From assembly GCA_020057115.1 (NCBI GenBank), contig JAGVGJ010000039.1:52806-116805 (forward strand): a stretch of 64,000 bases of DNA, written 5' to 3'. The stretch comes from Candidatus Omnitrophota bacterium. Its GTDB lineage: Bacteria; Omnitrophota; Gorgyraeia; 2-01-FULL-45-10. This document shows positions 1 through 61,091 of this stretch, in pieces (positions within the stretch are counted from its first letter, which is position 1; each line of letters starts with the position of its first letter). The notes under the pieces were generated by a model. That model ran no database searches, had not been told where the DNA came from, and was given only the letters and a program-made list of their open reading frames with translations. Both the position numbers and the translations under genes were made by a program.

Positions 1-33
1 GTTCTTAGTGCATAGTTCATAGAAACAAAAAAA

Positions 34-70
34 GAACCCGTAAAAAAATTGCGCGGTTCTTTTTTATTTA
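34..70 (+). terminator. Putative intrinsic terminator for a gene upstream of the window
   Basis: Imperfect GC hairpin gaacccg...cgcggttc followed by a T-run (ttttttattta). Confidence 0.35.
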
Positions 71-99
71 TATTTTGGGTATTTTAGTGTAATTAATAA

Positions 100-376
100 T
101 TAAGGTAATAATTAAGGGACGTTTCTAGGTAATTAAGGTAGGTAATTAAGGGACGTTTCTAAATCTGATCTTGGGACGTTTGTAAATTCCATCCCACACC
201 TGTCCCCTAACTTTTTTGTGGACAAATATGATTCTTTATTTTTGGGACATGCTTAAGATGGATTATATAAAGATTCCTATATCCACCTATGTCCATGCCT
301 GTCTCCCCGTTATCCTGAGGGACAGGTGTGGGATGGAATTTGGGGACACATGCAAGATCAGATTTAGAAACGTCCC
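100..376. repeat. Compound repeat element: direct repeats plus a ~57-bp inverted repeat flanking a ~110-bp core
   Basis: Two ~29-bp direct repeats taaggta(a/g)taattaagggacgtttcta at ~100-128 and ~133-162, and a third gggacgtttgt at 173-183. Left arm 150-207 (gggacgtttctaaatctgatcttg...aaattccatcccacacctgtcccc) is the reverse complement of right arm 319-376, except for a ~10-nt divergent middle. Confidence 0.6.
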
Positions 377-452
377 TTATTTTGAGAAGCTGAGGGGTTT
401 GTGGGCGAAAAATACCCCCACCGATACTGCTTATTTGATATAATATTATGTT

Positions 453-1547
453 ATGAAGATGGTTATTTTGCCCTTTAATGTTAAGGTGCCGGTGCTTGCT
501 TGCGGGGCGGATCTGAAGGGGGCTTTTGCGCTTGCCAAGGGCAATAATGCTTATTTGGTCGATGGTTTCGGCGATCTAAGTGACCCAGACAACCTGGAGA
601 AGTATGAGAAGGCAGTAAAGCTCACCTGCCGGAAGCTAAAGATAATACCGAAGACGATCGTTTGTGATATGCATCCCGGTTATTTCTCAACTCGTTTTGC
701 CGAAAACTGGACCCTGGCCCCTGGCCCCTGGACCCTTAGCAAGGTCCAACACCATCACGCCCACGTGGCCGCCGCTATCATCGACAATTCAATAAAAGGC
801 GACGTGATAGGGGTTGCGTTCGATGGCACTGGCTATGGCCTTGACGGAAATATCTGGGGTGGGGAGTTCTTCATCGGGAGCCTGAAAGGCTTTAAGCGAG
901 CCGGGCATCTGGAATATGTCGCAATGCCGGGAGGGGAAGCAGCGATAAGAGAGCCATGGCGCATGGCGGCGAGTTTTTTACATTCCGCCGGAGTCGATGA
1001 CATCGCAAGATCGTTATACGGTAATAAGACGAAACCCATAAAACTATTGATAGACAAGGCCTTCAATTCACCTCTCACATCGAGCGCCGGAAGATTGTTC
1101 GACGCTGCGGCGAGCATCATCCTTAGAAAAGAGAAGGCGATATTCGAGGCTGAACTTCCGATAGCCATCGAAAAGATAGCCGAAGAGTCATGTGGTGATC
1201 ATTATAAGTGCGCTACTACACCTCAACTCGTGAGAGCTGTGGCGCGCGACTCATTAAAAGGCGTCGAGCGTTCTATAATATCGGCAAAATTCCATAATTC
1301 TGTCGCAAGGCTCATATTGAATACGGCGCGGAAGATAAGAAGAAGCACGAAGATAAAAAAAGTCATTCTCGCGGGTGGGGTATTCCAGAACAGATTTTTA
1401 ACAGAGCGCGCTACGGGGCTTTTAGAGAAAGCGGGCTTCGAGGTATTTATTCACACTGACATTTCAACCAATGATTCCGGCATCCCGATAGGGCAGATAG
1501 CGCTCTGCGGGACCCTGGACCCTGGATCCTGGCCCCTGCACGCATAG
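453..1547 (+). CDS. hypF: HypF-like carbamoyltransferase, Kae1/TsaD-like C-terminal domain only; acylphosphatase, Zn-finger and YrdC domains absent
   Basis: 364 aa with the HHHAHVAAA motif and FDGTGYGLDG, aligning only with the C-terminal half of canonical ~750-aa HypF. Sits in a hyp cluster with hypCDE. Confidence 0.75.
   Translation: MKMVILPFNVKVPVLACGADLKGAFALAKGNNAYLVDGFGDLSDPDNLEKYEKAVKLTCRKLKIIPKTIVCDMHPGYFSTRFAENWTLAPGPWTLSKVQHHHAHVAAAIIDNSIKGDVIGVAFDGTGYGLDGNIWGGEFFIGSLKGFKRAGHLEYVAMPGGEAAIREPWRMAASFLHSAGVDDIARSLYGNKTKPIKLLIDKAFNSPLTSSAGRLFDAAASIILRKEKAIFEAELPIAIEKIAEESCGDHYKCATTPQLVRAVARDSLKGVERSIISAKFHNSVARLILNTARKIRRSTKIKKVILAGGVFQNRFLTERATGLLEKAGFEVFIHTDISTNDSGIPIGQIALCGTLDPGSWPLHA
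712..735 (+). repeat. C-rich orientation copy of the (GGGNCCA)n tandem repeat, in frame inside hypF (encodes WTLAPGPWTL)
   Basis: Sequence ccctggcccctggcccctggaccc. Confidence 0.6.
1509..1538 (+). repeat. C-rich orientation (CCCTGGN)n repeat at the hypF 3' end, just upstream of hypC
   Basis: Sequence ggaccctggaccctggatcctggcccctg, encoding the hypF tail ...DPGSWPLHA. Confidence 0.6.
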
Positions 1548-1563
1548 TTTGCGAGGATTTCTT

Positions 1564-1776
1564 ATGTGTTTAGCGATACCAATGAAGATAATCAAGATCG
1601 ACGGCGATACGGCAACAGTAAAGGCTGGCGGCTTGGAACGTAAGGCTAATATAGCACTACTTAAGAATGTCAGGTTGGGTGAGTACATCCTTGTGCATGC
1701 GGGCTTTGCCATAGAGAGGGTCAAGGAGTCCGAAGCGAAGAAGACATTGAAAATAATGCATGAGCTTGAGATGTGA
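1564..1776 (+). CDS. hypC: Hydrogenase maturation factor HypC
   Basis: Starts at the MCLAIP motif (the N-terminal Cys is essential). About 70 aa, HupF/HypC family. The listed ORF starts 5 codons earlier, but MCLAIP is the canonical N-terminus. Confidence 0.85.
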   Translation: MCLAIPMKIIKIDGDTATVKAGGLERKANIALLKNVRLGEYILVHAGFAIERVKESEAKKTLKIMHELEM

Positions 1777-2236
1777 GTTTCACGCGATGCTCGGGCGAAC
1801 CCAGCGGTTCGCCCAACGAGTAAGCCGACATCTCCATGCGGCTCGCTTATGGGTAAGGCTGGATTGGATCACGCTCTATATGGGAAACTGGTGGGTGATC
1901 CAATAAAGTATTAAGGTGTCGCTTCGCGACCTAGATAGGGAAGAAACAAGAACAAACCCTGAGCCCAATTTAGCACATTGAAAATGTTAGGCCTTTTAGA
2001 AGTAGAAAAATGGTTATATATAACAATTTTTTGATATTAAAAGGACCGAGGATGTTTGAGGCCTCCTCCGGAGGCCGAGTTCCGCAAGCCGCTGCTGTAT
2101 TCACCAGGCGGCAGCCCCCGAAGGGGGCTGGTCCCCATTTTTCTACTGAACAAAAGGCCGGCCCTTTAGTTTAACTAGAGGGGCAACATTTTCAGTGATA
2201 AATTGGGTTCAGGGTTTGGAAGCTACATGAGAGAGA
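1777..2236 (+). other. Highly structured 460-nt non-coding spacer inside the hyp operon, a candidate ncRNA or MITE-like insertion
   Basis: No ORF. Many GC-rich hairpins (gggcgaacc/ggttcgccc; attggatcac/gtgatccaat; ggcctcc/ggaggcc; gccccc/gggggc; ggccggcc). An 18-bp inverted repeat with one mismatch, aaccctgagcccaattta (1955-1972) and taaattgggttcagggtt (2199-2216), encloses 226 bp. Confidence 0.3.
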
Positions 2237-3355
2237 ATGATGAAGTATATCGATGAGTTCAGGGACAAGCATCTGATCGTGAAGATCGCTAAGCGCATAC
2301 GCGAAGCGGTCGATCCGAGCCGCACTTATAATTTCATGGAAGTATGCGGCACGCACACTATGAGCATATTCCGCTTCGGCCTGCGGGACCTGTTGCTTAA
2401 GAATATAAGGCTTATTTCAGGCCCGGGATGCCCGGTCTGCGTCACGCCGAACGAATATATCGATAAAGCGATCGCAGCCGCAGAGCTTCCAAATGTCATC
2501 ATAGCCACATTCGGGGATCTCTTCAGGGTCCCGGGATCATATTCAAGTCTTGAAAAAGAAAAAGCCGCAGGCAGAGACATCAGGATGGTCTATTCAAGCA
2601 CCGATGCGATCGAACTCGCCAAGAAGCATCCCGATAAGGAGGTTGTTTTCCTGGGCATAGGGTTCGAGACCACGATACCTACGGTAGCCATGTCGATATT
2701 GATGGCGAAGAAGGAGAAGTTGAATAACTACTCGGTCCTCTCCGGCCATAAGACGATGCCGGAAGTATTAAGAGCGCTCGTCACAGACAGGTCCGTAAAG
2801 GTGGATGGTTTTATCCTTCCGGGGCATGTGAGCGCTATAATAGGCGTAAAGCCTTATCAGTTCCTGGCCAAGACCTACAAAAAGAGGTGCGTCATAACCG
2901 GTTTTGAACCGCTGGATATCTTGCAGGGGATATTGATGCTCGTTTCGCAGAAGAAGCCTAAGGTGGATGTTCAATATACGAGGATAATAGAGGCTTCCGG
3001 CAACAGGCGCGCCGAAGCGAGTATTGAGAAGGTCTTCCAGAAGACGATATCTAATTGGCGCGGGATCGGAGAAGTAAGAAATAGCGGTCTAAAGATACGG
3101 AAAGCTTTTTCCGCCTTCGATGCGGAAGATAAATTCAACATAAGGCCAAGGCCTTCAAGAGAACATGCCGGATGTGTATGTGGGGAAGTGCTTAAGGGCG
3201 TAAAAACGCCGCTTGAGTGCAGATTATTCTCCAAGGTCTGCAACCCTGAGCATCCTGTCGGTGCATGTATGGTAGCTACCGAAGGGACGTGCGCGGCATA
3301 TTATAAATACAGGGGCCAGGGGCCAGGGGCCAGGGGCCAGGAAAAAACATGGTGA
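2237..3355 (+). CDS. hypD: Hydrogenase maturation factor HypD
   Basis: 372 aa with the conserved CGTH, GPGCPVC and CAAYY motifs. The C-terminal ~14 aa (RGQGPGARGQEKTW) are encoded by the G-repeat. Confidence 0.9.
   Translation: MMKYIDEFRDKHLIVKIAKRIREAVDPSRTYNFMEVCGTHTMSIFRFGLRDLLLKNIRLISGPGCPVCVTPNEYIDKAIAAAELPNVIIATFGDLFRVPGSYSSLEKEKAAGRDIRMVYSSTDAIELAKKHPDKEVVFLGIGFETTIPTVAMSILMAKKEKLNNYSVLSGHKTMPEVLRALVTDRSVKVDGFILPGHVSAIIGVKPYQFLAKTYKKRCVITGFEPLDILQGILMLVSQKKPKVDVQYTRIIEASGNRRAEASIEKVFQKTISNWRGIGEVRNSGLKIRKAFSAFDAEDKFNIRPRPSREHAGCVCGEVLKGVKTPLECRLFSKVCNPEHPVGACMVATEGTCAAYYKYRGQGPGARGQEKTW
3312..3341 (+). repeat. Perfect G-quadruplex motif (GGGGCCA)x4 overlapping the hypD 3' end and the hypE Shine-Dalgarno
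   Basis: Sequence ggggccaggggccaggggccaggggccagg, with AGGA at 3339-3342 and 6 nt to the hypE ATG at 3349. Confidence 0.75.
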
Positions 3356-4353
3356 GAAAAATACTTTTAAGTCATGGTTCCGGTGGGAGGATGATGCATG
3401 AACTTCTCGATAAGTTCATATTGAAAGAGCTTGATAACGAGATATTGAGGGAGAAGAAGGATTCGGCCATCCTGGCCCTCGGGAATAAGAAATTCGCATT
3501 TACCACAGACTCTTATGTGGTCGACCCGATAATATTCCCCGGAGGAGATATCGGAAGCCTTGCTGTGTGCGGCACAGTGAATGATCTTGCCGTTTGCGGC
3601 GCCCGTCCGTTATACCTGTCAGTCAGCGCTATTATCGAAGAAGGGCTCGAGATGGCGATATTGGAACGGGTCATAAGATCTGTAAGGGATGCGGCTAAGG
3701 CTGCCGGAGTAAAGGTCGTTACAGGCGACACTAAAGTCGTCAACAAAGGCTCTTGCGACAAGATATTCTTAAATGCGAGCGGTATCGGCGAGATATATTA
3801 CGGCGGGCTTTCAGCGGACAGGATAAAACGCGGAGATGTCATCATAGTTAACGGCCCAATAGGCGAACATGCCATAAGCGTCTTGTCAAAGCGCGAAGGC
3901 ATAGGCTTCAACACAACTGTCAAGAGCGATTCAGCGCCGTTAAACAAGCTTATCACCGGGATATTAGGCGCCTCTAAAAAAGTCAGGTTCATGCGCGACC
4001 CGACGCGCGGGGGCGTCGCAACCACATTGAATGAGATAGTAAAAGAGATGCCTTTCGGGATAATGCTCAATGAAAGCGATATACCCCTCAGCAATGGCGC
4101 AAGAGGGGCGTGCGAATTGCTTGGGCTCGATCCTCTATACCTTGCGTCTGAAGGCAGGGTGCTTGTTGTCGTCGCCAAAGAGGATGCCGGGAAAGTCTTG
4201 CGCGCGATGAAGCGTGATAAACTGGGCAGGAAGGCCAAGGTAATAGGTTGCGCGGTCAAGGAACACGCGGGAAAGGTATTTCTCAATACAGTATCCGGCG
4301 GCAAGAGGATAGTTGACATGCTTTCAGGCGAGCAGCTTCCGAGGATATGCTAG
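3349..4353 (+). CDS. hypE: Hydrogenase maturation factor HypE (carbamoyl dehydratase)
   Basis: 334 aa, PurM-like, with the canonical C-terminal ...PRIC motif. Confidence 0.9.
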   Translation: MVRKILLSHGSGGRMMHELLDKFILKELDNEILREKKDSAILALGNKKFAFTTDSYVVDPIIFPGGDIGSLAVCGTVNDLAVCGARPLYLSVSAIIEEGLEMAILERVIRSVRDAAKAAGVKVVTGDTKVVNKGSCDKIFLNASGIGEIYYGGLSADRIKRGDVIIVNGPIGEHAISVLSKREGIGFNTTVKSDSAPLNKLITGILGASKKVRFMRDPTRGGVATTLNEIVKEMPFGIMLNESDIPLSNGARGACELLGLDPLYLASEGRVLVVVAKEDAGKVLRAMKRDKLGRKAKVIGCAVKEHAGKVFLNTVSGGKRIVDMLSGEQLPRIC

Positions 4354-4357
4354 AACG

Positions 4358-5077
4358 ATGTATAAAGAACGCGCTTACAGGAGATGGGTAAAGTCAGACG
4401 GACTTGTATCATTTGAGGCCGTGGTGAAGGAGACGGATCTATTCGTATCGGCCGATAGCGATCTAAAGAAAGAAGCCGTCGCATCCATAATGCGTTATCG
4501 CGGGGAACTTGAAGATTATATTATGAAGCATGAGGATTTTTTGACATCTCTTGAGCCGGTAGAAGTTAAAGCCGATGCACCCGAGATAGCGAAAGTGATG
4601 GCTGCAGCCGCCAAGAAAGCCGGCGTAGGCCCGATGGCTGCCGTGGCAGGCGCTATGGCGGAATTTGTGGGAAGAGGCCTTCTCAAGTTATCCGGCGAGA
4701 TAGTGGTTGAAAATGGCGGGGATATATTCTTAAAAATAAATAAGAAGCGCTCCATGGGTATATTCGCGGGTGAGCGCTCGCCATTTACGGGAAAGCTTGC
4801 CATTGAGATCGAGCCTGATAAGGATGGAGTTGGGGTCTGCACTTCAAGCGGCACGGTGAGCCATTCTTTAAGTTTCGGGAATGCAGATGCGGCGCTTATC
4901 ATATCGGATAATGCCGCGCTTGCCGATGCGATGGCGACAGCTACAGGCAATCTCGTTAAGAGCGCATCCGACATAGAGAAAGGTGTCGCTTTCGCGAAGT
5001 CTGTAGAAGGCGTCAGGGGAGTGCTTATCATAGTAGGGGATAAATTAGGCAGTTGGGGTGATATAAAGTTAATATGA
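4358..5077 (+). CDS. UPF0280 / COG2122 (ApbE-like) family protein
   Basis: About 240 aa, Ala/Gly-rich (GPMAAVAGAMAE..., GVCTSSGTVSHSLSFGNADAA), resembling the archaeal UPF0280 family. The alternative upstream start at 4313 overlaps hypE. Confidence 0.45.
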   Translation: MYKERAYRRWVKSDGLVSFEAVVKETDLFVSADSDLKKEAVASIMRYRGELEDYIMKHEDFLTSLEPVEVKADAPEIAKVMAAAAKKAGVGPMAAVAGAMAEFVGRGLLKLSGEIVVENGGDIFLKINKKRSMGIFAGERSPFTGKLAIEIEPDKDGVGVCTSSGTVSHSLSFGNADAALIISDNAALADAMATATGNLVKSASDIEKGVAFAKSVEGVRGVLIIVGDKLGSWGDIKLI

Positions 5078-5089
5078 CAAGGAGGGGCC

Positions 5090-5497
5090 ATGGTATCAAA
5101 AAGGATAGTGTTAACATTTCCGCACAAGCTGCTCGACCAGCCGATAGCATATAAGCTGGTGAAGGACCACAACCTGATGTTCAACATCCTTCAGGCGAAG
5201 ATAACCCCAAAGGAAGAGGGCATCATGGTCCTTGAGCTTTCCGGAAAGAAGGAAGATTATGCGCAGGGAATAAAGTACCTTACGGAACTCGGCATAAAGA
5301 TAAAGCCTTTAAGCAAGGATGTCTCAAGAAATGACGTAAAGTGCACGCATTGCGGGGCATGCATCACTATATGCCCGACAGGCGCTTTATACATGGACAG
5401 GGACACGATGAAGGTCATATTTGACGATGAAAAATGCATAGCCTGCGAGCTTTGCGTAAAGGCCTGTCCCCCGAGGGCAATGGTGGTAAAGTTCTAA
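5090..5497 (+). CDS. NIL-domain protein fused to a 2x[4Fe-4S] ferredoxin
   Basis: An N-terminal ~75-aa NIL-like domain followed by CTHCGACITICP and CIACELCVKACP cluster motifs. A good SD (aggagg) lies 8 nt upstream. Confidence 0.75.
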   Translation: MVSKRIVLTFPHKLLDQPIAYKLVKDHNLMFNILQAKITPKEEGIMVLELSGKKEDYAQGIKYLTELGIKIKPLSKDVSRNDVKCTHCGACITICPTGALYMDRDTMKVIFDDEKCIACELCVKACPPRAMVVKF

Positions 5498-5498
5498 C

Positions 5499-5527
5499 TT
5501 GACTTGGCGTATTTCAGGGCATAAAAT
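5499..5527 (+). promoter_or_regulatory. Sigma70-like promoter for the asrA-like / hydrogenase-1 operon
   Basis: ttgact (5499-5504), a 17-nt spacer, then taaaat (5522-5527). Confidence 0.4.
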
Positions 5528-5553
5528 ATATCTCTTTCACCGGCCAGGAGAGC

Positions 5554-6603
5554 ATGGAAAAAACATTTTACACGATAACAAAAAAAGACCTTTTTGACCT
5601 CTTCTCTAGGTTGTCAAAAGAGTACAGGATATTCGTCCCTTACAAGAAGGGCGAAGGCCTGTACTTCGGCGAATTCAACGCCGAGAAGGAAGACGAGATA
5701 GAGCTGGGCGCGATAAGACAGGCTCAGCCGTTCAAGTCTTTTATATCCGTTTCCCGCGAGAATGTCCTGGAGCCCGCAGAGAAGCGTTCCGGCCCTGTCA
5801 TAGTGGCCGGGGTGAAAAGCTGCGACCTCCAGAGCATGGTCCTGCAGGACCATGTATTCCTCGAAGGGGATTTTAAGGATCCTTTCTACGCAAAAAAGAG
5901 AGAAGATACGATCATAATATCCCATGACTGCACCACTGCCAAAGAGACGTGTTTCTGCATGGCGATGGCGGGCATGCCATTCCCCCAAAAAGATTTTGAC
6001 ATGAACCTCTCCCCGGTCGACGGGCACATACTGGTTGAGATCGGAAGCGAAAAGGGCAGGGCGATGGTGGGCGGTTATAAGACCTTCTTTAAGAGCGCCG
6101 ACTCCCGCGATATGAAAGCCAGGGATGAGCTGCGCGCTAAAGTCTCCGAAGAGGTCTCAGGTTTTATAAGTAAGCGTGGCACCCCGAAGACGACCGAACT
6201 GTGGGGGGTGGTAAAAAAGAATTACGACAACATCCCGTTCTGGCAGGATTTTTCTTCGACGTGCGTCGAATGCGGCGCATGCAATCTCGGATGCCCGACC
6301 TGCCACTGCTTTCTTCTTTATGACTCAAAAGGAAAGGACATCCCCAGGAGGATGAAGGCCTGGGATTCGTGTCTTTATAACACTTTTGCAAGGGTGGCCG
6401 GTGACCATAACCCGAGAAAACACCTTTATGAAAGGCTGCGCAACAGAATAGACAAAAAGCTCGACTACTTTCCGCATGTCATGAATTATTTCGCCTGCAC
6501 GGGGTGCGGGCGCTGTATAGAGGCGTGTCCCGGCGATATCGATATCAGAGAGATAATGAAAGGGCTTATGAAGGGCGCCTGGAACAAGCCGCCGAATGAT
6601 TAA
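5554..6603 (+). CDS. AsrA / sulfhydrogenase-beta (HydB)-like Fe-S subunit
   Basis: 349 aa with Cys motifs CFCMAMAG, CVECGACNLGCPTCHC and CTGCGRCIEACP, matching the anaerobic sulfite reductase subunit A / sulfhydrogenase beta architecture. Confidence 0.7.
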   Translation: MEKTFYTITKKDLFDLFSRLSKEYRIFVPYKKGEGLYFGEFNAEKEDEIELGAIRQAQPFKSFISVSRENVLEPAEKRSGPVIVAGVKSCDLQSMVLQDHVFLEGDFKDPFYAKKREDTIIISHDCTTAKETCFCMAMAGMPFPQKDFDMNLSPVDGHILVEIGSEKGRAMVGGYKTFFKSADSRDMKARDELRAKVSEEVSGFISKRGTPKTTELWGVVKKNYDNIPFWQDFSSTCVECGACNLGCPTCHCFLLYDSKGKDIPRRMKAWDSCLYNTFARVAGDHNPRKHLYERLRNRIDKKLDYFPHVMNYFACTGCGRCIEACPGDIDIREIMKGLMKGAWNKPPND

Positions 6604-7423
6604 TATGAAAAATCCGTATAGCTATATTGAGGCCGAGATACTGGACGTCATCGAAGAGTCCCCGACCATCAAGACCTTCAGGCTTAAGCCTAAGGCAGAC
6701 ATAGGTTTCAGGGCGGGCCAGTTCATGGATGTCACCATCCCCGGGGTTGGAGAGGCGCCGTTCACGCCTTCCTCGAACCATGACGTCAAGGAGTATCTGG
6801 ATTTCACCATCATGAAGGCAGGCCGCGTCACGAATCTTCTTCACGGGATGAAAAAGGGAGAGGTCGTGGGCCTGAGGGGGCCTTACGGCAAGGGATATCC
6901 TCTGGACATATTTAAAGGCAAGGATATATTTATCGTAGGAGGCGGCGTAGGGCTTGCGCCATTGAGGGCTCTGTTATACGCACTTTTCAACGAGGTCGAT
7001 GATTACAACAAGATAATACTTAAATACGGTTCAAGGTCCCCGAAGGACATAATATATAAAAGCGAGATAGATACCTGGAGAGACAGGGGCAAGAATGTGA
7101 GCCTTGAGGTCTCGTGTGATACCGGAGACGATACATGGAAAGGCAACGTCGGTCTTGTGACCACGATATTGAAAGACCTTGATATAAATATGGCTAATGC
7201 CGTATCGATAGTATGCGGCCCGCCGATAATGATGAAGTTCGTCACGTTCAAGATCCTGGACCTCGGGTTCAAAGACACGCAAGTCTATCTCTCGATGGAG
7301 AAGAACATGTCGTGCGGCATCGGCAAGTGCGGCCACTGCAGGATAGGGCCGTATTACGCATGTAAGGACGGGCCGGTATTCACTTACGACAAGATCAAGG
7401 ATCTGCCGAATATATGGGATTAA
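6596..7423 (+). CDS. AsrB / sulfhydrogenase-gamma (HydG)-like FAD/NAD(P)H-binding [2Fe-2S] oxidoreductase (PyrK family)
   Basis: 275 aa with a ferredoxin-NADP reductase-like fold (RAGQFMDV, GGGVGLAPL) and C-terminal CGIGKCGHCRIG...C [2Fe-2S] motif. Confidence 0.8.
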   Translation: MINMKNPYSYIEAEILDVIEESPTIKTFRLKPKADIGFRAGQFMDVTIPGVGEAPFTPSSNHDVKEYLDFTIMKAGRVTNLLHGMKKGEVVGLRGPYGKGYPLDIFKGKDIFIVGGGVGLAPLRALLYALFNEVDDYNKIILKYGSRSPKDIIYKSEIDTWRDRGKNVSLEVSCDTGDDTWKGNVGLVTTILKDLDINMANAVSIVCGPPIMMKFVTFKILDLGFKDTQVYLSMEKNMSCGIGKCGHCRIGPYYACKDGPVFTYDKIKDLPNIWD

Positions 7424-7427
7424 TAGA

Positions 7428-7458
7428 GGGACAAGGGGCCAGGGTCAAGGGTCCCAGG
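7428..7458 (+). repeat. G-tract repeat (4 G3-4 tracts) filling the asrB-like / hycB-like intergenic spacer and carrying the SD AGGTGA
   Basis: Sequence gggacaaggggccagggtcaagggtcccaggtg. Confidence 0.7.
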
Positions 7459-7464
7459 TGAAAT

Positions 7465-7968
7465 ATGAAAAGGCTATTCATAGATCTGGACATATGCGAT
7501 CAATGCGACGAATGTGTCTCGTCATGCTCTTATGTCCAGCATCCGAAGAATGAAGGCATCACATCCTTAAGGGAGCTGGCGCATTTCGTCGTAGTCTGCC
7601 GCAGGTGCGATGATGCCCCGTGTGTGGCCTCATGCCCGTGGGAAGCGCTCGAGATGCAGGACTATAATGCGCTCAAGAGATACATGATGAGGTGCACCTC
7701 ATGCAAGTCATGTTCGAGGGCATGCCCGTTCGGGGTCATATATCCGGAGACGATACCTTTCATCATAGCAAGGTGCGATTTCTGTCTCGGAAGGCTCAAA
7801 GAGGGCGAGACGCCGGCCTGTCTCCAGGCATGCACGCATAATGGCGTCAAGTACGGCGAGTTCGAAGAAAATAAGGACGAACATATCTACCAGGTATCGG
7901 AATATCTGGTTGTGAAGACAAATTACAAATGGGAGAGGATCCTCCAGGCTCCTCCGAAGAAGAAATGA
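7465..7968 (+). CDS. HycB/NrfC-like multi-[4Fe-4S] electron-transfer subunit
   Basis: 167 aa with four Cys clusters: CDQCDECVSSC, CRRCDDAPCVASCP, CTSCKSCSRACP and CDFC...C. Confidence 0.7.
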   Translation: MKRLFIDLDICDQCDECVSSCSYVQHPKNEGITSLRELAHFVVVCRRCDDAPCVASCPWEALEMQDYNALKRYMMRCTSCKSCSRACPFGVIYPETIPFIIARCDFCLGRLKEGETPACLQACTHNGVKYGEFEENKDEHIYQVSEYLVVKTNYKWERILQAPPKKK

Positions 7969-8903
7969 ACATTTTTGGATACTTAGGGCTACTCTTGATA
8001 TTCCCGGGCTTTTTGTTCACGGCCTTCATGGGGCTCATGGTGGGCTGGGTGGACAGGAAGGTCACGGCCAGGATACAGTACAGGGTCGGCCCTCCGTGGT
8101 ACCAGAATTTCTTCGATATTGCGAAGCTATTCTTCATAAAGGAGACGCTGATACCGGCGGGCGTGTCTAGGGCGCTGTTCCTCGGGATGCCGGCCTTGGG
8201 CCTTGCAGGGGCTACTCTGGTCTCCACGATGGTGCTCGTTATAAACGCATCCCCGAAGACGGGTTTTATAGGGGACCTTATCGTAATAGCGTACCTTTTG
8301 CTCATACCGCCTATCGCGGTGATGCTCGGCGGGTTCGTCTCCGAGAACAGCCTCGCGTCGCTCGGCGCGTCGAGGGAGATGAAGCTCATGATGTCATATG
8401 AGCTTCCGTTCATCCTTGCCATGACCGTGCCGATAATAAAGTGCGGCTACTCGATAAAGCTGGGGGAGATGATATCGGCGCAATATGTCAATGGCCCGGT
8501 ATTTGCGAGCGCATCCGGGGTGATCGCTTTCTTCGTCATGATGCTGTGCATCCAGGCGAAGCTCGGATTTGTACCGTTCGATATGCCCGAGGCCGAGACC
8601 GAGATAATGGCAGGCCCGTATATCGAATATTCAGGCAAGGCCCTCGGGATATTCAAGCTGCAGAAGGCGATGCTCGGGTTCATCATCCCCGTATTCATGA
8701 TAACTTTGTTCTTCGGCGGGATAAAGGATGACTTCTCCGGTTTTATGAAGAACATAGCCGAGTTCGCAGGGATACTGGTAATAATGATAGTCATAAAGAA
8801 CACCAACCCCCGCGTCAGGATAGACCAGGCGATGGGATTCTTCTGGAAACCTGTCACCGCCGCGGCGGTAATAGCGGTGGCGTTGGCGTATTTCGGGAAA
8901 TAG
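7965..8903 (+). CDS. NuoH/HycD/MbhM-like membrane subunit of group-4 hydrogenase complex 1
   Basis: The ORF from 7929 overlaps the upstream gene, so the likely start is MNIFGYLGL at 7965. Polytopic, with NuoH-like conserved residues (RKVTARIQYRVGP). Confidence 0.85.
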   Translation: MNIFGYLGLLLIFPGFLFTAFMGLMVGWVDRKVTARIQYRVGPPWYQNFFDIAKLFFIKETLIPAGVSRALFLGMPALGLAGATLVSTMVLVINASPKTGFIGDLIVIAYLLLIPPIAVMLGGFVSENSLASLGASREMKLMMSYELPFILAMTVPIIKCGYSIKLGEMISAQYVNGPVFASASGVIAFFVMMLCIQAKLGFVPFDMPEAETEIMAGPYIEYSGKALGIFKLQKAMLGFIIPVFMITLFFGGIKDDFSGFMKNIAEFAGILVIMIVIKNTNPRVRIDQAMGFFWKPVTAAAVIAVALAYFGK

Positions 8904-8905
8904 AT

Positions 8906-9340
8906 ATGGGATTAAAAGAAAAGATACTCGCGCGCTCGATATATGTCTTCCATGTCTCAAGCGGCAGCTGCAATAATTGCGATATCGAGATACTGGATTG
9001 CCTGACGCCGAGGTTCGACCTGGAGAGATTCGGCGTGGTACTGGTGGGAAGCGTCAAGCATGCCGATGCCATGTTATGCACCGGATCGGTCAACCGTCTC
9101 ACCGTGCCGCGTATAAAAAAATTATACGAGCAGATGCCCAAGCCAGGTTTTGTGATAGCATGGGGCGCGTGCGGCTCATCGCGCGGGCTCTTCAAGGACA
9201 GCTACAATACCGGTGCGCCGCTCGACGAGATAATCCCGGTCGATGCCTATATCCCGGGATGCCCGCCTAAGCCGGAGGCCGTAATAGGCGCGCTCGTCAA
9301 GCTTAAAGAGAAGATATTGAACAAGAAAGCCGTAAAATGA
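8906..9340 (+). CDS. Group-4 [NiFe]-hydrogenase small subunit (NuoB/MbhJ/EchC-like)
   Basis: 144 aa with the proximal [4Fe-4S] ligand motifs CNNCDIE, GSVKHAD...C and GCPP. Confidence 0.9.
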   Translation: MGLKEKILARSIYVFHVSSGSCNNCDIEILDCLTPRFDLERFGVVLVGSVKHADAMLCTGSVNRLTVPRIKKLYEQMPKPGFVIAWGACGSSRGLFKDSYNTGAPLDEIIPVDAYIPGCPPKPEAVIGALVKLKEKILNKKAVK

Positions 9341-32705: not shown

Positions 32706-32732
32706 AGGGGCAAGGGTCCTGGGCCCAGGGTC
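32706..32732 (+). repeat. G-tract repeat in the queE-queF spacer
   Basis: Sequence ggggcaagggtcctgggcccagggtcc. Confidence 0.7.
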
Positions 32733-32751
32733 CAAAAGAAACGGTGATACG

Positions 32752-33204
32752 ATGAAGAGTCCGACATACGAAGGGTTGCAGTGCAAAATAAAGAAGTTAA
32801 ACACGCCGGAGATAGAGGTCTGGGAAAATAATTATCCGGAGCGGGATTATGTGATAGAGATAGATATCCCGGAATTTACCTGCATATGCCCCAAGACGGG
32901 ATTGCCGGATTTCGCGGATATAAAAATAAGATATATAGCCGATAAGCAGTGTATCGAGCTAAAGTCGCTCAAATACTACACTCTGTTTTACAGGGATGTG
33001 GGGATATTCAATGAAAACGTCGTAAATAAGTTCATGGATGACTTTGTGAAGGCTGTGAAGCCGCGCTGGGCCCAGATAACGGGCGTGTTCAACGCAAGAG
33101 GCGGGATAAAGACGACGGTTGTGGCTGAATATAAAAGGGGCAAGGGGCCAGGGTCTCCCGCCCATATGGTATCGAGGGGCGGGACAGGCGGGGTCCAGAG
33201 ATAA
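32752..33204 (+). CDS. queF: NADPH-dependent 7-cyano-7-deazaguanine reductase with an unusual Gly/Pro-rich C-terminal tail
   Basis: FTCICPKTGLPDFA and E.KSLKYY motifs. The last ~25 aa (GKGPGSPAHMVSRGGTGGVQR) are encoded by the G-repeat at 33137-33198. Confidence 0.85.
   Translation: MKSPTYEGLQCKIKKLNTPEIEVWENNYPERDYVIEIDIPEFTCICPKTGLPDFADIKIRYIADKQCIELKSLKYYTLFYRDVGIFNENVVNKFMDDFVKAVKPRWAQITGVFNARGGIKTTVVAEYKRGKGPGSPAHMVSRGGTGGVQR
33137..33198 (+). repeat. Extended G-tract repeat at the queF 3' end, just upstream of the fumarase alpha start
   Basis: Sequence ggggcaaggggccagggtctcccgcccatatggtatcgaggggcgggacaggcggggtcc, with six or more G3-4 tracts. Confidence 0.7.
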
Positions 33205-41734: not shown

Positions 41735-44700
41735 ATGCGAAACACTATTTGGTTCAAAACAATCTGCATGCTTTTGGCGGCGGCGTTTTTGTCTTTAGAT
41801 GTCGCCTGGGCATACCCGCCTGACCGGATGGAGCCTTCCAGGCATAACCTTGCGCCAGAGTCGATATTCGGCGAGAGAGTGATGACTGATGGCACCAGGG
41901 CGCGCAAGGCCGATCTGCTCAAAGAGGAGGAATTAGCCGGATGCGTGATGAGCGTAGCCGTCCTCTTGTTCCGCGACCGCACGCCCGTAACTCGCCTGGA
42001 AACTACGCTTAGCCCCGAGTTTAAGAAGTCCATTGACGGCATAGACCTTTCGAAAGTCACTGCAGCTACCATAAAAGACAATAAGCTTGATCTCATCCCT
42101 CTGGAAGATGACAGGCTGATACCCAAAGACCAGATAGCGGGCATCCCCTACAAGAAAGACGGTAAATATTATTATATTCAAATAACGCCAAAAGGCAGCC
42201 CTGTCGCAGGGCGGCTTATCGGAAAGGCGTGGCCTATATCAGATATGTATGAGATAAGCGTATATGCCCCTGACGCATTGGTCACTATGCCTGTCAGGAG
42301 CACTGACGCCGGTATTGTGGAAACCGCAGAAGAGGTCGCGAGATCTCCGGAAGCTGTTATTCCGCCATCCATGGCTCCTCCGAGCGCGCCTACCGTTAAG
42401 ATGCCGGAAGCCTCCAGAAATCCGCCAGGCACTACATCATACTCGTTCACTTTCCCGGCCGCGCTGGCATTCTTGGTCCCGATCTTTGAAACAGCCAAAA
42501 ATTTTATAGCGGAGCATCCTTTCATTTCGGCTGGGGCCGGAATTGCCGCAGGAGCTGTTGTAGGGATGCTCGCATATCGTAAATTTTTGCGCATGAAAAG
42601 ATTCGCCGCCGGATCCTTCAGTAATGAAAAAGAGGCCGCTCTTACGCAGATATTTGATGACCTCGCGGATGTGGAAGATAAGACAAACAATGTAACAGGA
42701 GACAAAAAGAGAGTAGAGGCAAAAGAAAAAACAGCCGTTGTCATCGGAGCCGGGAGGATAGGACGCGGCCTGATAGGCAAGCTCCTCAATGATTCCGGTT
42801 ACAAAATAACATTTGTCAACAGGAGCTCCGGAATAGTCGATGCTTTAAATAGAGACGGCGGTTATAACCTTCAGATAGTGGGAAATGACGGGAGCGTGAT
42901 ATCCAGGCGCATAGGCAACGTGATCGCCATAGCAAAGTCAGATACAAACGGCGTAACCAATGCTATCTATGATACAGATACGGTGTTCCTCGCCGTATTC
43001 GACCAGGATTTTGATGACGTCTCTTCCGTGATAGCTAAAGGAATAGAGAATAGGCTGGCGGGAGGCGTGAGGCGGCCTATCAACGTCATAGTCGTCTCGA
43101 ACAGGTTCTCCGCGAAACACGTTGTAAGGGATGCCATATTGCGTCATGTCTCGCCCATGATGAGGACCGATGCGGACGCGCTCCTGGGGGTCGTTGATAC
43201 GGCGACATTCGATATAATACCCGGGATCCCGGACTTATTGGCCGAAAAAGACCCGAGCCTGATACAAGTATACAGCGACATGCATCTGTTTGCGGATAAT
43301 AGCGGATTCAGGGGAGAGCTTTTAAGGTTAAAAGGCATCGATATGACCGATAATATCAAGGATATAAAACTCAGGAAGCTATTCGTATATAACGGCGCGC
43401 ACGCGATATGCGCGTACCTCGGGTATCTTAAGAGGTACGAATATATACAGGAGGCGATAAATGATCCGGCCATAAGAGGCGTTGTGGGAGCCGCTTTCGA
43501 AGAGATGAGGGGCCTTTTGGGAGAGTGGCCTGATTATGATGAGTTTACCAGGTTTGTTATCGCAAGACTTGCCGATAAAAGGTTCAATGACAAACTCGAG
43601 AGAGTCGCAAAGGACCCTATAAGAAAACTGTCAAGTTACGACCGTCTCGTAAGCCCGGCTCTATTGGCCATTAAAAATAACAAAACCCCGCACGCTTATG
43701 CCATGGGCATAGCCGCGGCGCTTCTCTATGATGACCCGGCAGACGAAGAGGCCGTAAAGATGCAGGCAAGACTCGCTGAAGAAGGCGGCATTGGCAAGGT
43801 CATAAGCGAGATATGCGGTCTCCGGTCGCAATATAAAGATGAGTTTGTTCTCATCGATCTCATCAGAACGAAGATCGCCATAGCCCGCAGAGAGAAGGCA
43901 AAGGCAGAGCTTGCAAAATCTATGAAGGCCGGAATATTTGATGAAGATAATTATGACAAGGTGGTGCACGTCTTGGGCAAGGTGCCTAAAAATGTCAAGC
44001 TTGTAGTATGGGACTTTGACAATGTCATAGGCAATACGCAGAAGCTCTATGCCGAGGCGACAGCCATAGTCTATTGGAAGATAAGAAAAGGCATCAAAGA
44101 AGCGGACGCTATTCCCGAAGATAATGATCCTGTATATCGGAAAGGAAAAGACCTCTATAACCAATTTTTGGCCGAAGGCCCGGCTACTTTCCGCACCATA
44201 CAGAAAGCTATCGAAGAGGTGAAGTCGGAAAAGGAGCTTGCGTCCGGCCTGCTTCCCGAAGCTGAATATTACAAACAGTTCGAGGCGATAAGAGAGGCCA
44301 TGTTCAGCGTGCTCGACCCATCAGACTTTTTTAATCCCAGGATGAGAGAGCTATTGTGTATCGTAAGGGCGCTCAATCCAGACGTAGAATTTTGCGTGAA
44401 TACGGCTCTTGAAAAGAGTTTCTTTGAGCGGCAGTTCATGAGGCCCGGATTCAGGGGTTACTTCACTTCCGCCAAAGCGCTCAGCGTAGAGCAGAGGAAT
44501 GCCGGGAATATAGAGGAGGCGAAAGCGCGTAATCTGATGGTGCTGCTCCAGGAGAAAGGCGTCAAGCCCGAAGAGACCGTAGTCATAGATGATTCGAGCA
44601 GGTTCATGAATACGGTGAGGATGAGAGCTCCTGATATATTCAGGATAGGGGTCGCCACAGATATCAGGTTCGGCAAGAACCTTATCGATAAGGAAGTCAA

Positions 44701-47700
44701 CGTAGTATTCATGAACATGAAGCCTACGCCGGAAAAATTGATGATGCTTGGCCTTAACAAGAAGCTCCTCGAGAGCAATCAGGACGGCTCAAGCGTAATA
44801 AAGAGCGTAGCCCCCGATGTCTATATGATCAGGTCTGAACCCAAGGTCCAGCACGATCCCGGCGCCATAGATTGGGATATAGAGACCGCGTTCAGCAAGA
44901 AGCACGGGATGCAGCCTGTGAGGAGCGAAACGGCGAGAAAGGTCATGGAGCAGTCGTTCGAAGCGCTCGTCAGAAAAGGCAGCATAAAACCAAATGTCAT
45001 AGTGAACATAAAAGATTTCAGCCCTAATGCGGTCGCTGTCTACATGAGTAAATTGAAGGAGGTCTCGGAATATTATAACGGGAATGTCACTTTCGTGCTG
45101 GTAGTGGAAAACAACATAGAGCGCTTCCGGAACGACATGCCGAGCATGTTCAGCGCGGTGGCTAAAGCGCAGGCTGCTATAAGAGAGGCCGCAAAAGCGA
45201 AGAATGCGGATAGCGAGCATTTCGGGACCGAATACACGATGATGATAGCGGACGGCGGCCGGAAGATGAGGAACATGCCTCTCACGCTGGCGTATCTGTA
45301 CGAAGGCCTTATGCCGTACGAGAAGGACAGGATAAGGCTCCAGGAGGTATTCGTAAGGACCGGGGCGCTTCTCATGCAGATGCCGAAGTGCGGCGTGGAC
45401 GACATGGCGGTCGTCGGCTCCGACAGCGTATTCAACTCGGAGAAGATGGTGACAGCGGAGGGAGGGCCGCTGGCTTCTCTTAGGCAAAGAGCCCTGGTGG
45501 TCCCGGTGGTCCAGTATGATGCCAAAGAAGATATGTCGACAAAGATAGTCCGCGCTGCAGACGCCCAAGACAAGACGCAATATGTCCTTGTCAAGCCAGG
45601 AAAAGAGCTCTTGGATAAATACAGGCTCAAATATAAAGATAGCAGCTATTCGGGCCTCCACTTCCTTGCCATATGGAAGAAGTCCTTCCTCTCAGATTTT
45701 CTTCAGGTCATGCAGGGCGAGAAGATGGATAACGGAGATACGTTCTTAGAGCTCCCGTGCGACATGTTCATGCTCTTCTTCCAGAGCGTATTGATGCCGG
45801 AGGATGAGTGGGCAGCTTTAAGGCCAAGCGGGATATCGGAAAGGGACTGGAAGAAGGCAAGAGAACTTTCGACAAGATGCTTCGGCCAGGACCTGGCCCA
45901 GGTCAGGTTCGTGAAGATGGAGGCGGAAGAAGCCTTTACCGACGAGGGCATCCTTGAGACTTCACTGCCCAGATTCAGCCACCTTATAACGGATGACAGG
46001 AATGTCGTGAAGAAGAGCCCTGATGTGGATTTTGCCAATGCCACGGCCGCCAGCCTTGATCACGTGATCGTAAAAGGCAGCGGCAAAATAGTATTCGGCA
46101 AGAACGTGAAATTGTCGAAGGTCATCATAGAACTTAACGGCGAGGAGCTCAACATACCGGACAACTGGACGATCGTTAACTCATATTTGAGCGGCGATTG
46201 CAAATTTAAAGAGTGCAACTCCTGTGTAGAAAGAGATGCTGCCAAGGCGCCGCGTCCGGGATACATCTTGAACGGGGTCTTTGTCAAAGATGGCAAGCTT
46301 AAGCCTTTGGCCGGCATGACATTCGAAGATGATACGGCATCAACGGTCCTTTACACTATACACGGCGAGCAGATAGTCGTGACCGTATCGATAGATGCAT
46401 CCAAAGCTGAACTCGACAAGATGAGGTTCACCAAGCGCAATCGCAGTCTTATGGGCCTTCAGGTAGATGCAGATATACAGGCCAATATAAGGGCTAAAGA
46501 TGCGATAGAAAAAGCCGTAAGAGAAGAGATACTGTCGATGCCAAAGATATTTCCTCTGTCGAAGGATGCCGTTAGGAAAAGGGTCTCCATAGGAACGAAG
46601 AAGTTCGATAAGCCGGTCGAGTATGCGGAAATAATAAAGACCCTGGAGGATCGCATCAAAAGAGACAGCAAGGGTGAAGATCAATACTGGGTCACTATCG
46701 AAGGCATACAGGGCGCAGGCAAGACATATATGATCAATGAGCTTAAGAGAGTGCTGGAGGCGCGCGGTAAGAACGTGGTAGTGATAGAAGAGGACTGGTA
46801 TCACAGATCGCGTATGGAGCGAGACCACGAGATGGATTCTCTTGATAAGCCCGAGAAAAAAACAAGGATATATCACGCTGAGAACTGGCACAAGTGGGGC
46901 AGATTAAGAGACGACATTAAAGATGTAAAGGATGCAGCTATGTCCGGCAATGAAGTCACATTGACCCTGAAAGATCTGTATAATAGGGATGATGAAGGCC
47001 AGCTGACCAGGGTTGAGAAATTGGCCATAAAACCCGGTACCATATTCATATACTCCGGATTCTACGTATCCGACAAGGGGAAGGTTGATATAGATTCCGA
47101 TCTTTCGATCTATATAGGCATAAATCAGGAAGATTCGCTTATAGTTAAACGCGAAAGAGACAAATGGAGGCCCCGCGGTGAAGTGTGGCAGCTTGACGAT
47201 GTGATATATAGACCGGCTTTCGAGCAATATATAAGCACATATGATCCGGCAGCCTCCTCCGACATAGTGATCAGATTCGATAATATAGATAACCGCAAGA
47301 AGGCGAGCTTTGTAATGCCTCTTACGAAAGCCGAATATAAAGATTATTATGATAATGAAAAGAAAGAGGCGGCCAAGAGAGAGCGCGAGATACAGAAGCA
47401 GGCGAGATCTCAAATAACCGAAAAACTTAAAGATATGATGAGATCCTCCAATAATACCAAGGCCATGTTTGAGGAAGCGGCCAACAGGGTGGTGAGTCTA
47501 TTGCGCAGCGAAAGCATGCTAAAGGGCCCCTCATCCGACCATGAGATCAAAAGACAGATGACTGCGGCCGAGATCAGGGAGAGGGCGGAGAAGATCATAG
47601 TAGCGGCCAAGGCGGCAGATAGATCCAGGCTGCCGCCTGATTTCGGTGAATATGTCGCTCTTCTGAAAGATAATCTGGAGCGCCTTGAGCCAGATGCCAT

Positions 47701-56758: not shown

Positions 56759-57232
56759 ATGGGCCTGGTTCGAAAGATAGTGACATGGGCAAGGATAAAG
56801 TCGCCGTGGATCATCCACTTTAATACAGGCGCGTGCAATGCCTGCGACATAGAGATAGTTGCCGCGCTTACTCCGCGTTATGATCTGGAGAGGTTCGGCA
56901 TCCAGCTTAAAGGCACGCCACGCCACGCAGATGTGCTCGTATGCTCCGGCCCTGTCACGAAGCAGATCACGCCCAGGTTGAAACGCATATATGAGCAGAT
57001 GCCCGAGCCGAAGTTCGTAGTGGCGGTAGGCACCTGCTCCTGCTCAGGCGGAGTATTCCAGGGATGTTATAATGTCGAGTCTGGGATCGACGAGGTCCTT
57101 CCGGTATCAGCCTATATACCCGGATGCCCTGCGAGCCCGAAGGCGATAATAGACGGCGTGACGAAACTTTTAATGAGTCTCGAGGATAAAGAAGGGTCCA
57201 GGATCCAGGGTCCAGGGTCCGGAAAAAAATAG
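56759..57232 (+). CDS. Group-4 [NiFe]-hydrogenase small subunit (NuoB/MbhJ-like, complex 2)
   Basis: CNACDIE, GTPRHADV, GTCSCSGG and GCPASP motifs. The C-terminal tail KEGSRIQGPGSGKK is encoded by the G-repeat. Confidence 0.9.
   Translation: MGLVRKIVTWARIKSPWIIHFNTGACNACDIEIVAALTPRYDLERFGIQLKGTPRHADVLVCSGPVTKQITPRLKRIYEQMPEPKFVVAVGTCSCSGGVFQGCYNVESGIDEVLPVSAYIPGCPASPKAIIDGVTKLLMSLEDKEGSRIQGPGSGKK
57194..57222 (+). repeat. G-tract repeat at the small-subunit / NuoC-like junction
   Basis: Sequence gggtccaggatccagggtccagggtccgg. Confidence 0.7.
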
Positions 57233-61014: not shown

Positions 61015-61091
61015 GTGGGCGTAGTTCAGCCTGGCAGAACACTTGACTGTGGCTCAAGACGTCGCGGGTTCAAATCCCGTCGCCCACCCCA
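61015..61091 (+). tRNA. tRNA-His (anticodon GUG) with G-1
   Basis: Acceptor GTGGGCG/CGCCCAC, G at -1 opposite C73, anticodon loop cTGTGGc, T-arm GCGGGTTCAAATCCCGT, and encoded CCA. A ttgata-17-taaaat promoter lies ~20 nt upstream. Confidence 0.9.

Follow-up and report, generated by a model that had tools for sequence, protein, structure and literature searches.

Four-unit (GGGKCCA)n arrays at gene junctions in a Candidatus Omnitrophota genome: a probable lineage-specific family of fast-turnover heptanucleotide repeats

Tandem repeats with a seven-nucleotide unit have been described from several bacterial groups. The STRR heptanucleotide repeats of heterocystous cyanobacteria, reportedly described by Mazel et al. 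in 1990, have the units CCCCA(A/G)T, TT(G/T)GTCA, and CAACAGT; phase-variation simple sequence repeats (SSRs) belong to surface or virulence genes, lying in the promoter or early (5') in the coding sequence, and expression switches as unit number changes from cell to cell or strain to strain. According to the summary in PMC4679880, those with heptamer units are the most common of the long SSRs in bacteria (LSSR5-11; Mrazek et al. 2007), and in one survey species-specific heptamer satellites were considered to be “probably transposed.” Rehm et al. (2015; PMC4692102) described GGGAATC repeats in Xanthomonas and GGGGA(C/T)T repeats in Nostoc, with convergent pairs and G-quadruplex (G4) formation in vitro; these vary between Xcc and Xac, their four-unit bias was attributed to a G4 requirement, and no function was identified. 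In marine Beggiatoaceae, TAACTGA repeats of two to six units are found a few nucleotides upstream of start codons, with a translational role proposed, not demonstrated (MacGregor, 2015; PMC4679880). The subject here is a family of (GGGKCCA)n arrays in one 64-kb stretch (“the window”) of a single Candidatus Omnitrophota genome (contig JAGVGJ010000039.1), so that the orientation and placement statistics rest on seven arrays.

With a probability of about 0.55, these arrays are tolerated, fast-turnover heptamer SSRs, a lineage-specific (A)GGGKCC family of the known bacterial heptanucleotide repeats, and they may have a modest effect in cis. Six of the seven have exactly four full units, and Tandem Repeats Finder gives copy numbers of 3.9-4.6. 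A two-unit pattern allowing up to two mismatches matches the window 26 times, against 4.3 +/- 2.2 expected (none of 100 shuffles of the window sequence reached 26), and six arrays have at least three units when one mismatch per unit is allowed, against none across 50 shuffles. Lone GGGKCCA-type units outside the arrays are at chance frequency (17, with 17.7 expected), so the family exists only as arrays. Slippage of local sequence would not give one unit common to seven sites, which would call instead for copy-paste, gene conversion, or selection for particular units. A sequence-only reading of the same DNA had already pointed to seven copies, six of them at cistron junctions and one in frame within hypF, to a perfect (GGGGCCA)x4 at 3312-3341, to C-rich copies at 712-735 and 1509-1538, and to Gly/Pro tails on HypD, QueF, the complex-2 small subunit, and HypF; all of these stand, the orientation as read on the sense strand and the tails by translation and Pfam domain ends.

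Turnover is apparent from comparison with relatives, the source-named HypD homologues all being Candidatus Omnitrophota (ORFs, or open reading frames, in these and other loci are our own simple calls). The closest relative with DNA (L171; HypD 82% identical in amino acids, 73.5% nucleotide identity over 5.4 kb) differs from the window by four internal indels of at least 6 nt, other indels occurring only at alignment ends. Three of the four are heptamer arrays: a 41-nt window insertion at 1506-1546 holds the hypF/hypC array, a 40-nt window insertion at 3312-3351 holds the hypD/hypE array, and the third, an (AGCTCAA)3.3 array at a different junction, belongs to L171 itself. The remaining indel, a structured element of 471 nt that separates hypC from hypD in the window, is considered below. 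In L171 there is no array at hypD/hypE, and the genes overlap as ATGGATAA. A relative with a 90% identical oxidoreductase has 1 nt between the two genes flanking the array at 7428, vs. a 41-nt array spacer in the window. All three testable junctions (hypF/hypC, hypD/hypE, and 7428) are array-free in the nearest relatives. These alignments indicate that the arrays are DNA-level insertions of approximately 28-33 nt, or about four units, which are quickly gained and lost; the upstream stop is displaced in the genes for HypF, HypD, QueF, and the NuoB-like subunit, and stop/start overlaps are turned into 40-50-nt spacers.

The same comparisons indicate that permissive sites receive arrays repeatedly and in either orientation, the unit differing between genomes but being shared within each. 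The HypF loop between the YxST(K/R)(Y/F)A and VQHHHAH motifs differs in length among homologues; in the window it carries (TGGNCCC)4, and in L124 (ACGAATG)4.7 occupies the same loop. In more distant relatives, a variable HypD loop contains in-frame AT-rich arrays, as (ATTTCGG)4(TCCGCAA)4 in seven loci and as (AAATCCG)4.7 in two (Table 1). The (ACGAATG)n family is present in L124, a 63%-identity relative, at 785-817 and 1612-1636, and in L173 (approximately 3740-3890) ACGAATG-type units flank a hairpin in the spacer between AbpE-like and NIL-ferredoxin genes. The adjacent HypD-loop arrays ATTTCGG and TCCGCAA are, counted by eye, about 6/7 complementary to each other.

More generally, the 435 kb examined around HypD relatives contain no GGGNCCA array, yet tandem repeats of period 7 outnumber those of any other period in them; the units include ATTTCGG, TCCGCAA, ACGAATG, TAGTACA, CTGTAAA, and TGAAGTT. 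Among these repeats are arrays as large as those of the window (about 4.3-4.7 units), in unrelated heptamers, often AT-rich and without G-tracts. (Single-linkage clustering of the heptamer units chained all of them into one group.) Over the window and the 435 kb together, period-7 copy number is bimodal, with 58 arrays of two units, nine of three, 27 of four, and two of five; periods 6, 8, and 9 show plain decay. The four-unit mode persists when only unique arrays with a unit free of GGG and CCC are counted (39, 7, 17, and 2 arrays of two, three, four, and five units). On these sequences, neither G4 formation nor a junction function defines the class of arrays. A G4 requirement as the reason for four units does not generalize, G-tract-free heptamers in the relatives and in other phyla also preferring about four.

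Within the window, the six junction arrays are all at tight same-strand junctions, each array or composite stopping 6-25 nt short of the following start codon. If a tight junction is defined as a gap of no more than 60 nt between co-directional neighbors, these six fall at six of 49 such junctions and none in the 13 longer gaps (3,583 nt in total); under a generous null, the probability of this placement is estimated here to be of order 1e-3 to 1e-4. Four of the six lie inside the upstream ORF, and Gly/Pro/Gln tails of 12-22 residues result on HypF, HypD, QueF, and the NuoB-like subunit, as judged from translation and Pfam domain ends. Neither conserved flanks nor a convincing target-site duplication was found around the window arrays; the AT-richness of their left flanks is due to stop-codon and C-terminal codon context. 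The hairpin insert of the composite array at 33137-33198 has no second copy in the window.

Table 1. Heptamer arrays of the window, with associated sequence, and in-frame AT-rich arrays in the HypD loop of more distant relatives. Positions for relatives are those of the named locus.
Position	Strand	Units	Context
708-735	-	GGGTCCA GGGGCCA GGGGCCA GGGTCCA; C-rich on sense (+) strand	In frame within gene for C-terminal half of HypF (453-1547); codes ..WTLAPGPWTL.. in variable loop
1509-1536	-	GGGGCCA GGATCCA GGGTCCA GGGTCCC; degenerate fifth unit extends to 1543; C-rich sense	1509-1543 is last 13 codons of hypF, tail GTLDPGSWPLHA; ends 25 nt before hypC ATG at 1564, taken as the true start
3312-3341	+	(GGGGCCA)4 + GG; perfect, 4.6 copies, 100% matches	Begins directly after last conserved HypD codon (..YYKY); codes most of tail RGQGPGARGQEKTW; hypD stop TGA at 3353-3355, past hypE start
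3339-3351	+	AGGA AAAAAC ATG	Shine-Dalgarno-like array end, A-rich spacer, hypE start
7428-7458	+	GGGACAA GGGGCCA GGGTCAA GGGTCCC AGG	Begins 4 nt past stop of FAD/NAD oxidoreductase gene (6596-7423); AGGTGA serves Fer4 gene start at 7465
32707-32734	+	GGGGCAA GGGTCCT GGGCCCA GGGTCCA	Begins 4 nt past stop of radical-SAM (QueE-like) gene; ends 17 nt before queF ATG at 32752
33137-33198 (composite)	+	GGGGCAA GGGGCCA GGGTCTC, 33-nt GC-rich hairpin-forming insert (CCCGCCC...GGGCGGG), GGGTCCA	Codes QueF tail RGKGPGSPAHMVSRGGTGGVQR; ends 10 nt before fumarase ATG at 33209
57194-57222	+	GGGTCCA GGATCCA GGGTCCA GGGTCCG G	Codes tail GSRIQGPGSGKK of NuoB-like subunit (56759-57232); ends 15 nt before NuoC-like start at 57238
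L127 1087-1150		AT-rich	HypD loop
L130 5506-5569		AT-rich	HypD loop
L131 3081-3143		AT-rich	HypD loop
L133, L141, L142, L155		AT-rich	HypD loop
L138 4387-4419		AT-rich	HypD loop
L144 2392-2424		AT-rich	HypD loop

By Pfam, the arrays are set among genes for the C-terminal half of HypF (453-1547), HypC, HypD (2237-3355), HypE, the FAD/NAD oxidoreductase, and a ferredoxin; QueC, a QueE-like protein, QueF (32752-33204), and fumarase; and the NuoB-like and NuoC-like subunits of a second group-4 hydrogenase-type complex. The HypF ORF consists of the Kae1-like C-terminal half alone (HypF_C + HypF_C_2, 364 aa), a short form also found in relatives L174 and the P0043 contig (377-393 aa); the N-terminal part (acylphosphatase, zinc-finger, and YrdC) was not seen in the window.

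If the arrays are tolerated repeats, some insertion or conversion process would create them, and purifying selection would remove all but those in tolerant loops or at the ends of genes. They would then survive in frame in variable loops and, where cistrons are tightly packed and once overlapped, at the stop codon or shortly before it. How might an operon tolerate them? G-rich sense arrays place an AGGG(G) motif in the spacer every 7 nt, and such Shine-Dalgarno (SD)-like motifs could make the insertion self-compensating for downstream translation, which would explain the survival of G-rich sense copies between formerly overlapping cistrons. Measured against a generic anti-SD sequence, not one taken from this organism, the G-rich units pair at -5.5 to -6.0 kcal/mol per unit pair, compared with a median SD in the window of -5.05; the AGGA before hypE pairs at -5.7, and SD strengths of the genes behind arrays are ordinary (-1.5 to -6.1 kcal/mol). 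Small hairpins, and perhaps an RNA G4 in the perfect copy, would be by-products, possibly with a modest effect on expression, but not the raison d'etre of the class. Elsewhere in the window, a single GGGGCCA unit at 5075-5092 is part of the ribosome-binding site of the NIL-ferredoxin gene (AAGGAGGGGCCATGG), so GGAGGGG-type SDs are normal in this organism.

Four observations weigh against tolerated turnover as the whole explanation. Long gaps contain no array, although neutral insertions would be expected there unless the insertion process or constraints bias placement. All but one of the arrays have exactly four units. The GGG is almost invariant: in the 27 window units, positions 1 and 2 are always G and position 3 is G in 25, and GGG positions deviate in two of 120 cases vs. 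20 of 120 at CCA positions (p = 6e-5). Finally, G-rich arrays recur at hypD/hypE in several diverged lineages: AGGGACC AGGGACA AGGG in L170, AGGGGCC AGGGTTC AGGGTCC AGGGACC in L173, AGGGTTC AGGGGGC AGGGAGC in L174, and (AAGGGTC)4.3, offset by 14 nt, in L175. Together these fit selection on a G-tract-dependent function. In favor of turnover, when HypD homologues are grouped by average-linkage clustering, G-rich heptamer-coded tails are dispersed over at least four clusters, among tail-less neighbors. A different C-terminal tail, ..RLGIGYRV, recurs in several lineages (P0014, P0026, P0065, P0086, P0099) and may derive from some other element at the junction. Another junction of this operon, the L173 spacer between hypE and the AbpE-like gene (2885-3015), holds an inverted-array doublet: degenerate G-rich heptamers are followed by their C-rich inverted complement, and the two would pair into a long hairpin.

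One such function would be that of an intercistronic RNA element, a hairpin and/or G4 that tunes translational coupling or protects the upstream mRNA in the manner of REP sequences in the operons of enterobacteria. Beyond the near-invariant GGG, the recurrence at hypD/hypE, and the four G-tract units in most arrays, it would account for their confinement to tight junctions and for the G-rich sense of five of the six junction arrays on the transcript, and related G-rich heptamer repeats do form G4s in vitro (PMC4692102). Folding energies (ViennaRNA, with and without G4s allowed) also offer it something: the perfect copy at 3312 is predicted to favor a four-tier G4 (-31.1 kcal/mol, vs. -15.6 for the hairpin), making it a strong predicted G4 candidate; three of the four simple G-rich sense arrays form hairpins of -11.6 to -15.6 kcal/mol (z -1.7 to -2.2); and the composite has a minimum free energy of -27.3 kcal/mol (z -1.84).

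The same predictions are less helpful to an RNA element when all arrays are considered. Sense-strand RNA is predicted to form small hairpins (-10.6 to -17.9 kcal/mol, z +0.7 to -2.2), those of three of the seven arrays being not clearly better than shuffles (z +0.7 to -1.0), and the predicted hairpin beats the G4 in six of seven. The sequence-only reading counted five copies with textbook G4 motifs; by the canonical definition (four G3 tracts with loops of 7 nt or less) there are four, of which only those at 3312, 7428, and 32707 are on the sense strand, the array at 708-735 having the motif on the antisense only and those at 1509 and 57194 each holding a GGA unit. Its G4 proposal survives as a prediction for the perfect copy and fares poorly for the others, with a hairpin predicted to win and G-tract-free arrays of the same size occurring elsewhere. 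In the four junction arrays that lie inside the upstream ORF, terminating ribosomes would unwind any structure; loop changes in relatives' arrays abolish the GGNCC self-complementarity while leaving the G-tracts; relatives have equally large arrays of AT-rich heptamers at equivalent sites; and the nearest relatives do without arrays at the same junctions. An RNA element is on balance unlikely.

The broader proposal of the sequence-only reading, a dispersed regulatory or processing element, can be divided in the same way. The arrays are a genuine, non-random dispersed family, but ordinary SDs behind them, mixed orientation (two of the seven arrays are C-rich), and array-free nearest relatives do not favor a regulatory role. 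Absence from homologous junctions of close relatives with no difference in expression, named in that reading as grounds for giving it up, was found as to the absence, at the three junctions tested, and an SD inside or abutting the repeat, said to be frequent, is present at only two of six junctions (starts at 3349 and 7465). By itself, the array family does not reveal a new regulatory system.

Another possibility is that the array is itself a miniature mobile cassette, a four-heptamer unit of approximately 30 nt copy-pasted by an unrecognized enzyme or by templated synthesis, with a genome-specific heptamer. Such a cassette would readily produce one unit at seven sites with lone units at chance, a size of about four units whatever the sequence, most of the internal indels between close relatives, and permissive sites struck repeatedly with different units. 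Distribution in other groups is also relevant here. A scan of a genome collection for (GGGKCCA)3 found at least 118 loci, often several per genome, which serve as examples and not as a taxonomic census; the repeat is not restricted to Omnitrophota, and among the loci listed, metagenome-assembled genomes (MAGs) are labeled as Acidobacteria, Gemmatimonadota, Planctomycetota, Chloroflexota, Nitrospirota, Desulfobaccales, and others. The listed loci are rich in heptamer arrays with other units, whose copy numbers likewise show a hump at 3.3-5.3, and many unrelated units are found within single genomes. Some units recur among them: GGATTKC/AATCCGC is shared by Pirellulaceae, Nitrospirota, and the HypD relatives, and a Gemmatimonadaceae MAG has GGGAATC, the unit known from Xanthomonas. 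Fifteen viral contigs (IMG/VR, L176-L190) carry (GGGKCC[A])4, some with two arrays about 50 nt apart.

In the listed loci from other phyla, 32% of arrays have an inverted partner within 150 nt, vs. 4% with a direct partner, a REPIN-like layout that a cassette would also fit. A long open frame spans 62.5% of these arrays vs. 89.5% of random sites, so they avoid long open frames. The inverted pairs, about one-third of arrays in loci such as L003, L095, and L013, are 20-80 nt apart, and array copy numbers in the other phyla have a small secondary bump at 8-9 units. Set against a cassette, Pfam scans of roughly 50 window ORFs found no transposase, RAYT, or reverse transcriptase; there are no recognizable target-site duplications or conserved ends; and unit variants differ between arrays. 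The only recombinase in the scanned ORFs is a large serine recombinase beside a tRNA gene. A mobile cassette is an improbable explanation, slightly more so than an RNA element. It is likewise improbable that an unrecognized but widespread templated or copy-paste insertion process, with a small recurring heptamer vocabulary, operates across many phyla and their viruses. If one does, most of the short indels that separate close relatives would be its work, as would the 10-residue inserts in enzyme loops, and the four-unit size would be set by the insertion mechanism, not by G-quadruplex formation.

A third alternative to tolerated turnover is a protein-binding platform, in which a sequence-specific DNA- or RNA-binding regulator or nucleoid-associated protein would recognize four heptamer sites per array. 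Fixed copy number and invariant core positions are what such a platform would be expected to have, and there are partial precedents: in Nostoc, heptamer repeats had modest effects on reporters, deletion of the repeats altered the effects of NtcA and LexA on a promoter, and an unidentified binder was postulated (bioRxiv 10.1101/2022.06.06.494920); for the TAACTGA repeats, S1, Csp, and CsrA have been put forward as candidates (PMC4679880). In the window, however, arrays are in both orientations, one is in a coding loop, and the adjacent genes (hyp, que, hydrogenase subunits) have no evident common regulon; close relatives have the same operons without arrays, and the many unrelated units per genome in other phyla would need many binders. 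Of the alternatives considered, this seems the most doubtful.

Some further candidates were tried and rejected. Downstream of most G-rich sense arrays the sequence is A-rich, where an intrinsic terminator would have a T-run; the A-rich flanks suggested terminators of antisense transcription, but the three arrays in the scanned region (1-9000) were not called as terminators on either strand. Each unit contains GGNCC and could be a restriction-site decoy, yet GGCC, GGNCC, and CCWGG outside arrays are at 0.87-0.94 of Markov expectation, and chance-level lone units also speak against it. Expansion in situ from an SD seed fits hypD/hypE, where tails like RVKGNG are found, but fails for the C-rich copies and the shared unit; SD-seeding is kept solely as an argument for array retention. 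Rfam has no family matching any array, its gathering-score matches in the window being one tmRNA and four tRNAs, and literature searches with the literal repeat sequence returned unrelated papers only.

Several other elements of the window are worth recording. The 471-nt insertion between hypC and hypD (1756-2226) is lacking in L171, whose hypC and hypD overlap; the folding energy of region 1777-2236 is -205.3 kcal/mol (z = -11.85), and the element has inverted repeats of approximately 36 nt (1953-1988 and 2185-2218, 89%), a terminator-like hairpin (2123-2136), and a 45-nt match in L124. It looks like a miniature inverted-repeat transposable element or a structured RNA. Upstream of the hyp genes, positions 94-161 are an AT-rich direct repeat of a 34-nt unit (1.9 copies, 93% matches) with TAATTAAGG motifs. 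An ORF of 2,197 residues (41735-48328) has mannitol-dehydrogenase domains at residues 333-677 as its sole Pfam matches. The serine recombinase (61026-62654, minus strand) overlaps or abuts the tRNA (61015-61088), and the two may mark the edge of an integrated element.

For practical purposes, arrays of this kind falsely lengthen ORFs and split overlapping cistrons, which matters for annotation; they also make up most short indels between related Omnitrophota genomes, which matters for strain comparison. Why heptamers, and why four? Comparison of filled and empty sites in close genomes makes both questions testable.

Among known systems, phase-variation SSRs differ in placement, since the genes that the window arrays follow or extend at the 3' end have housekeeping roles (hydrogenase maturation, queuosine synthesis, and hydrogenase subunits). 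Like REP/REPIN elements, which RAYT transposases mobilize (PMC3116915, PMC3733652), the arrays are short (20-40 nt), abundant, extragenic, located past gene 3' ends including those inside operons, and hairpin-capable, and the heptamer arrays of other phyla are often inverted doublets, as REPINs are. REPs, however, do not consist of tandem heptamers, and the window arrays are single and without a GTAG or CGTC tag, with no RAYT gene in the roughly 50 ORFs scanned. Some TAACTGA repeats likewise overlap the end of the upstream ORF, and that unit too is found in distant phyla (PMC4679880). Their copy number falls monotonically (68, 40, 19, 2, and 1 arrays of two to six units), whereas that in the window peaks at four; their unit is a different one, AT-rich, and usually replaces a recognizable ribosome-binding site, whereas the window array is itself SD-like, with SD-like motifs in or after the arrays.

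With the STRR and LSSR5-11 repeats the window family has in common short tandem heptamer arrays, many dispersed copies, mainly intergenic location, and lineage-specific units, of which several families exist, as far as the summarized accounts of those surveys go. Units and taxa differ (GGGKCCA in Omnitrophota is not an STRR in the strict sense, which is confined to heterocystous cyanobacteria), and in-frame loop copies and C-terminal tails do not figure in those accounts. The closest resemblance is to the repeats of Rehm et al. (PMC4692102): a dispersed heptamer with a G3-4 tract, a preference for four units, G positions best conserved, a strong bias to non-coding gaps between same-direction genes within approximately 50 bp of the upstream stop and sometimes overlapping it, and differences in length and sequence between close relatives. 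In contrast to those repeats, GGGKCCA puts CC after each G-tract, with a competing hairpin predicted to win in most copies, and the Omnitrophota arrays are within operons, mostly extend the upstream ORF, and form no convergent pairs in the window. In its G-tract heptamer, its preference for four units, and its placement over the 64 kb, the window family nevertheless has the defining features of the Rehm class that sequence can show.

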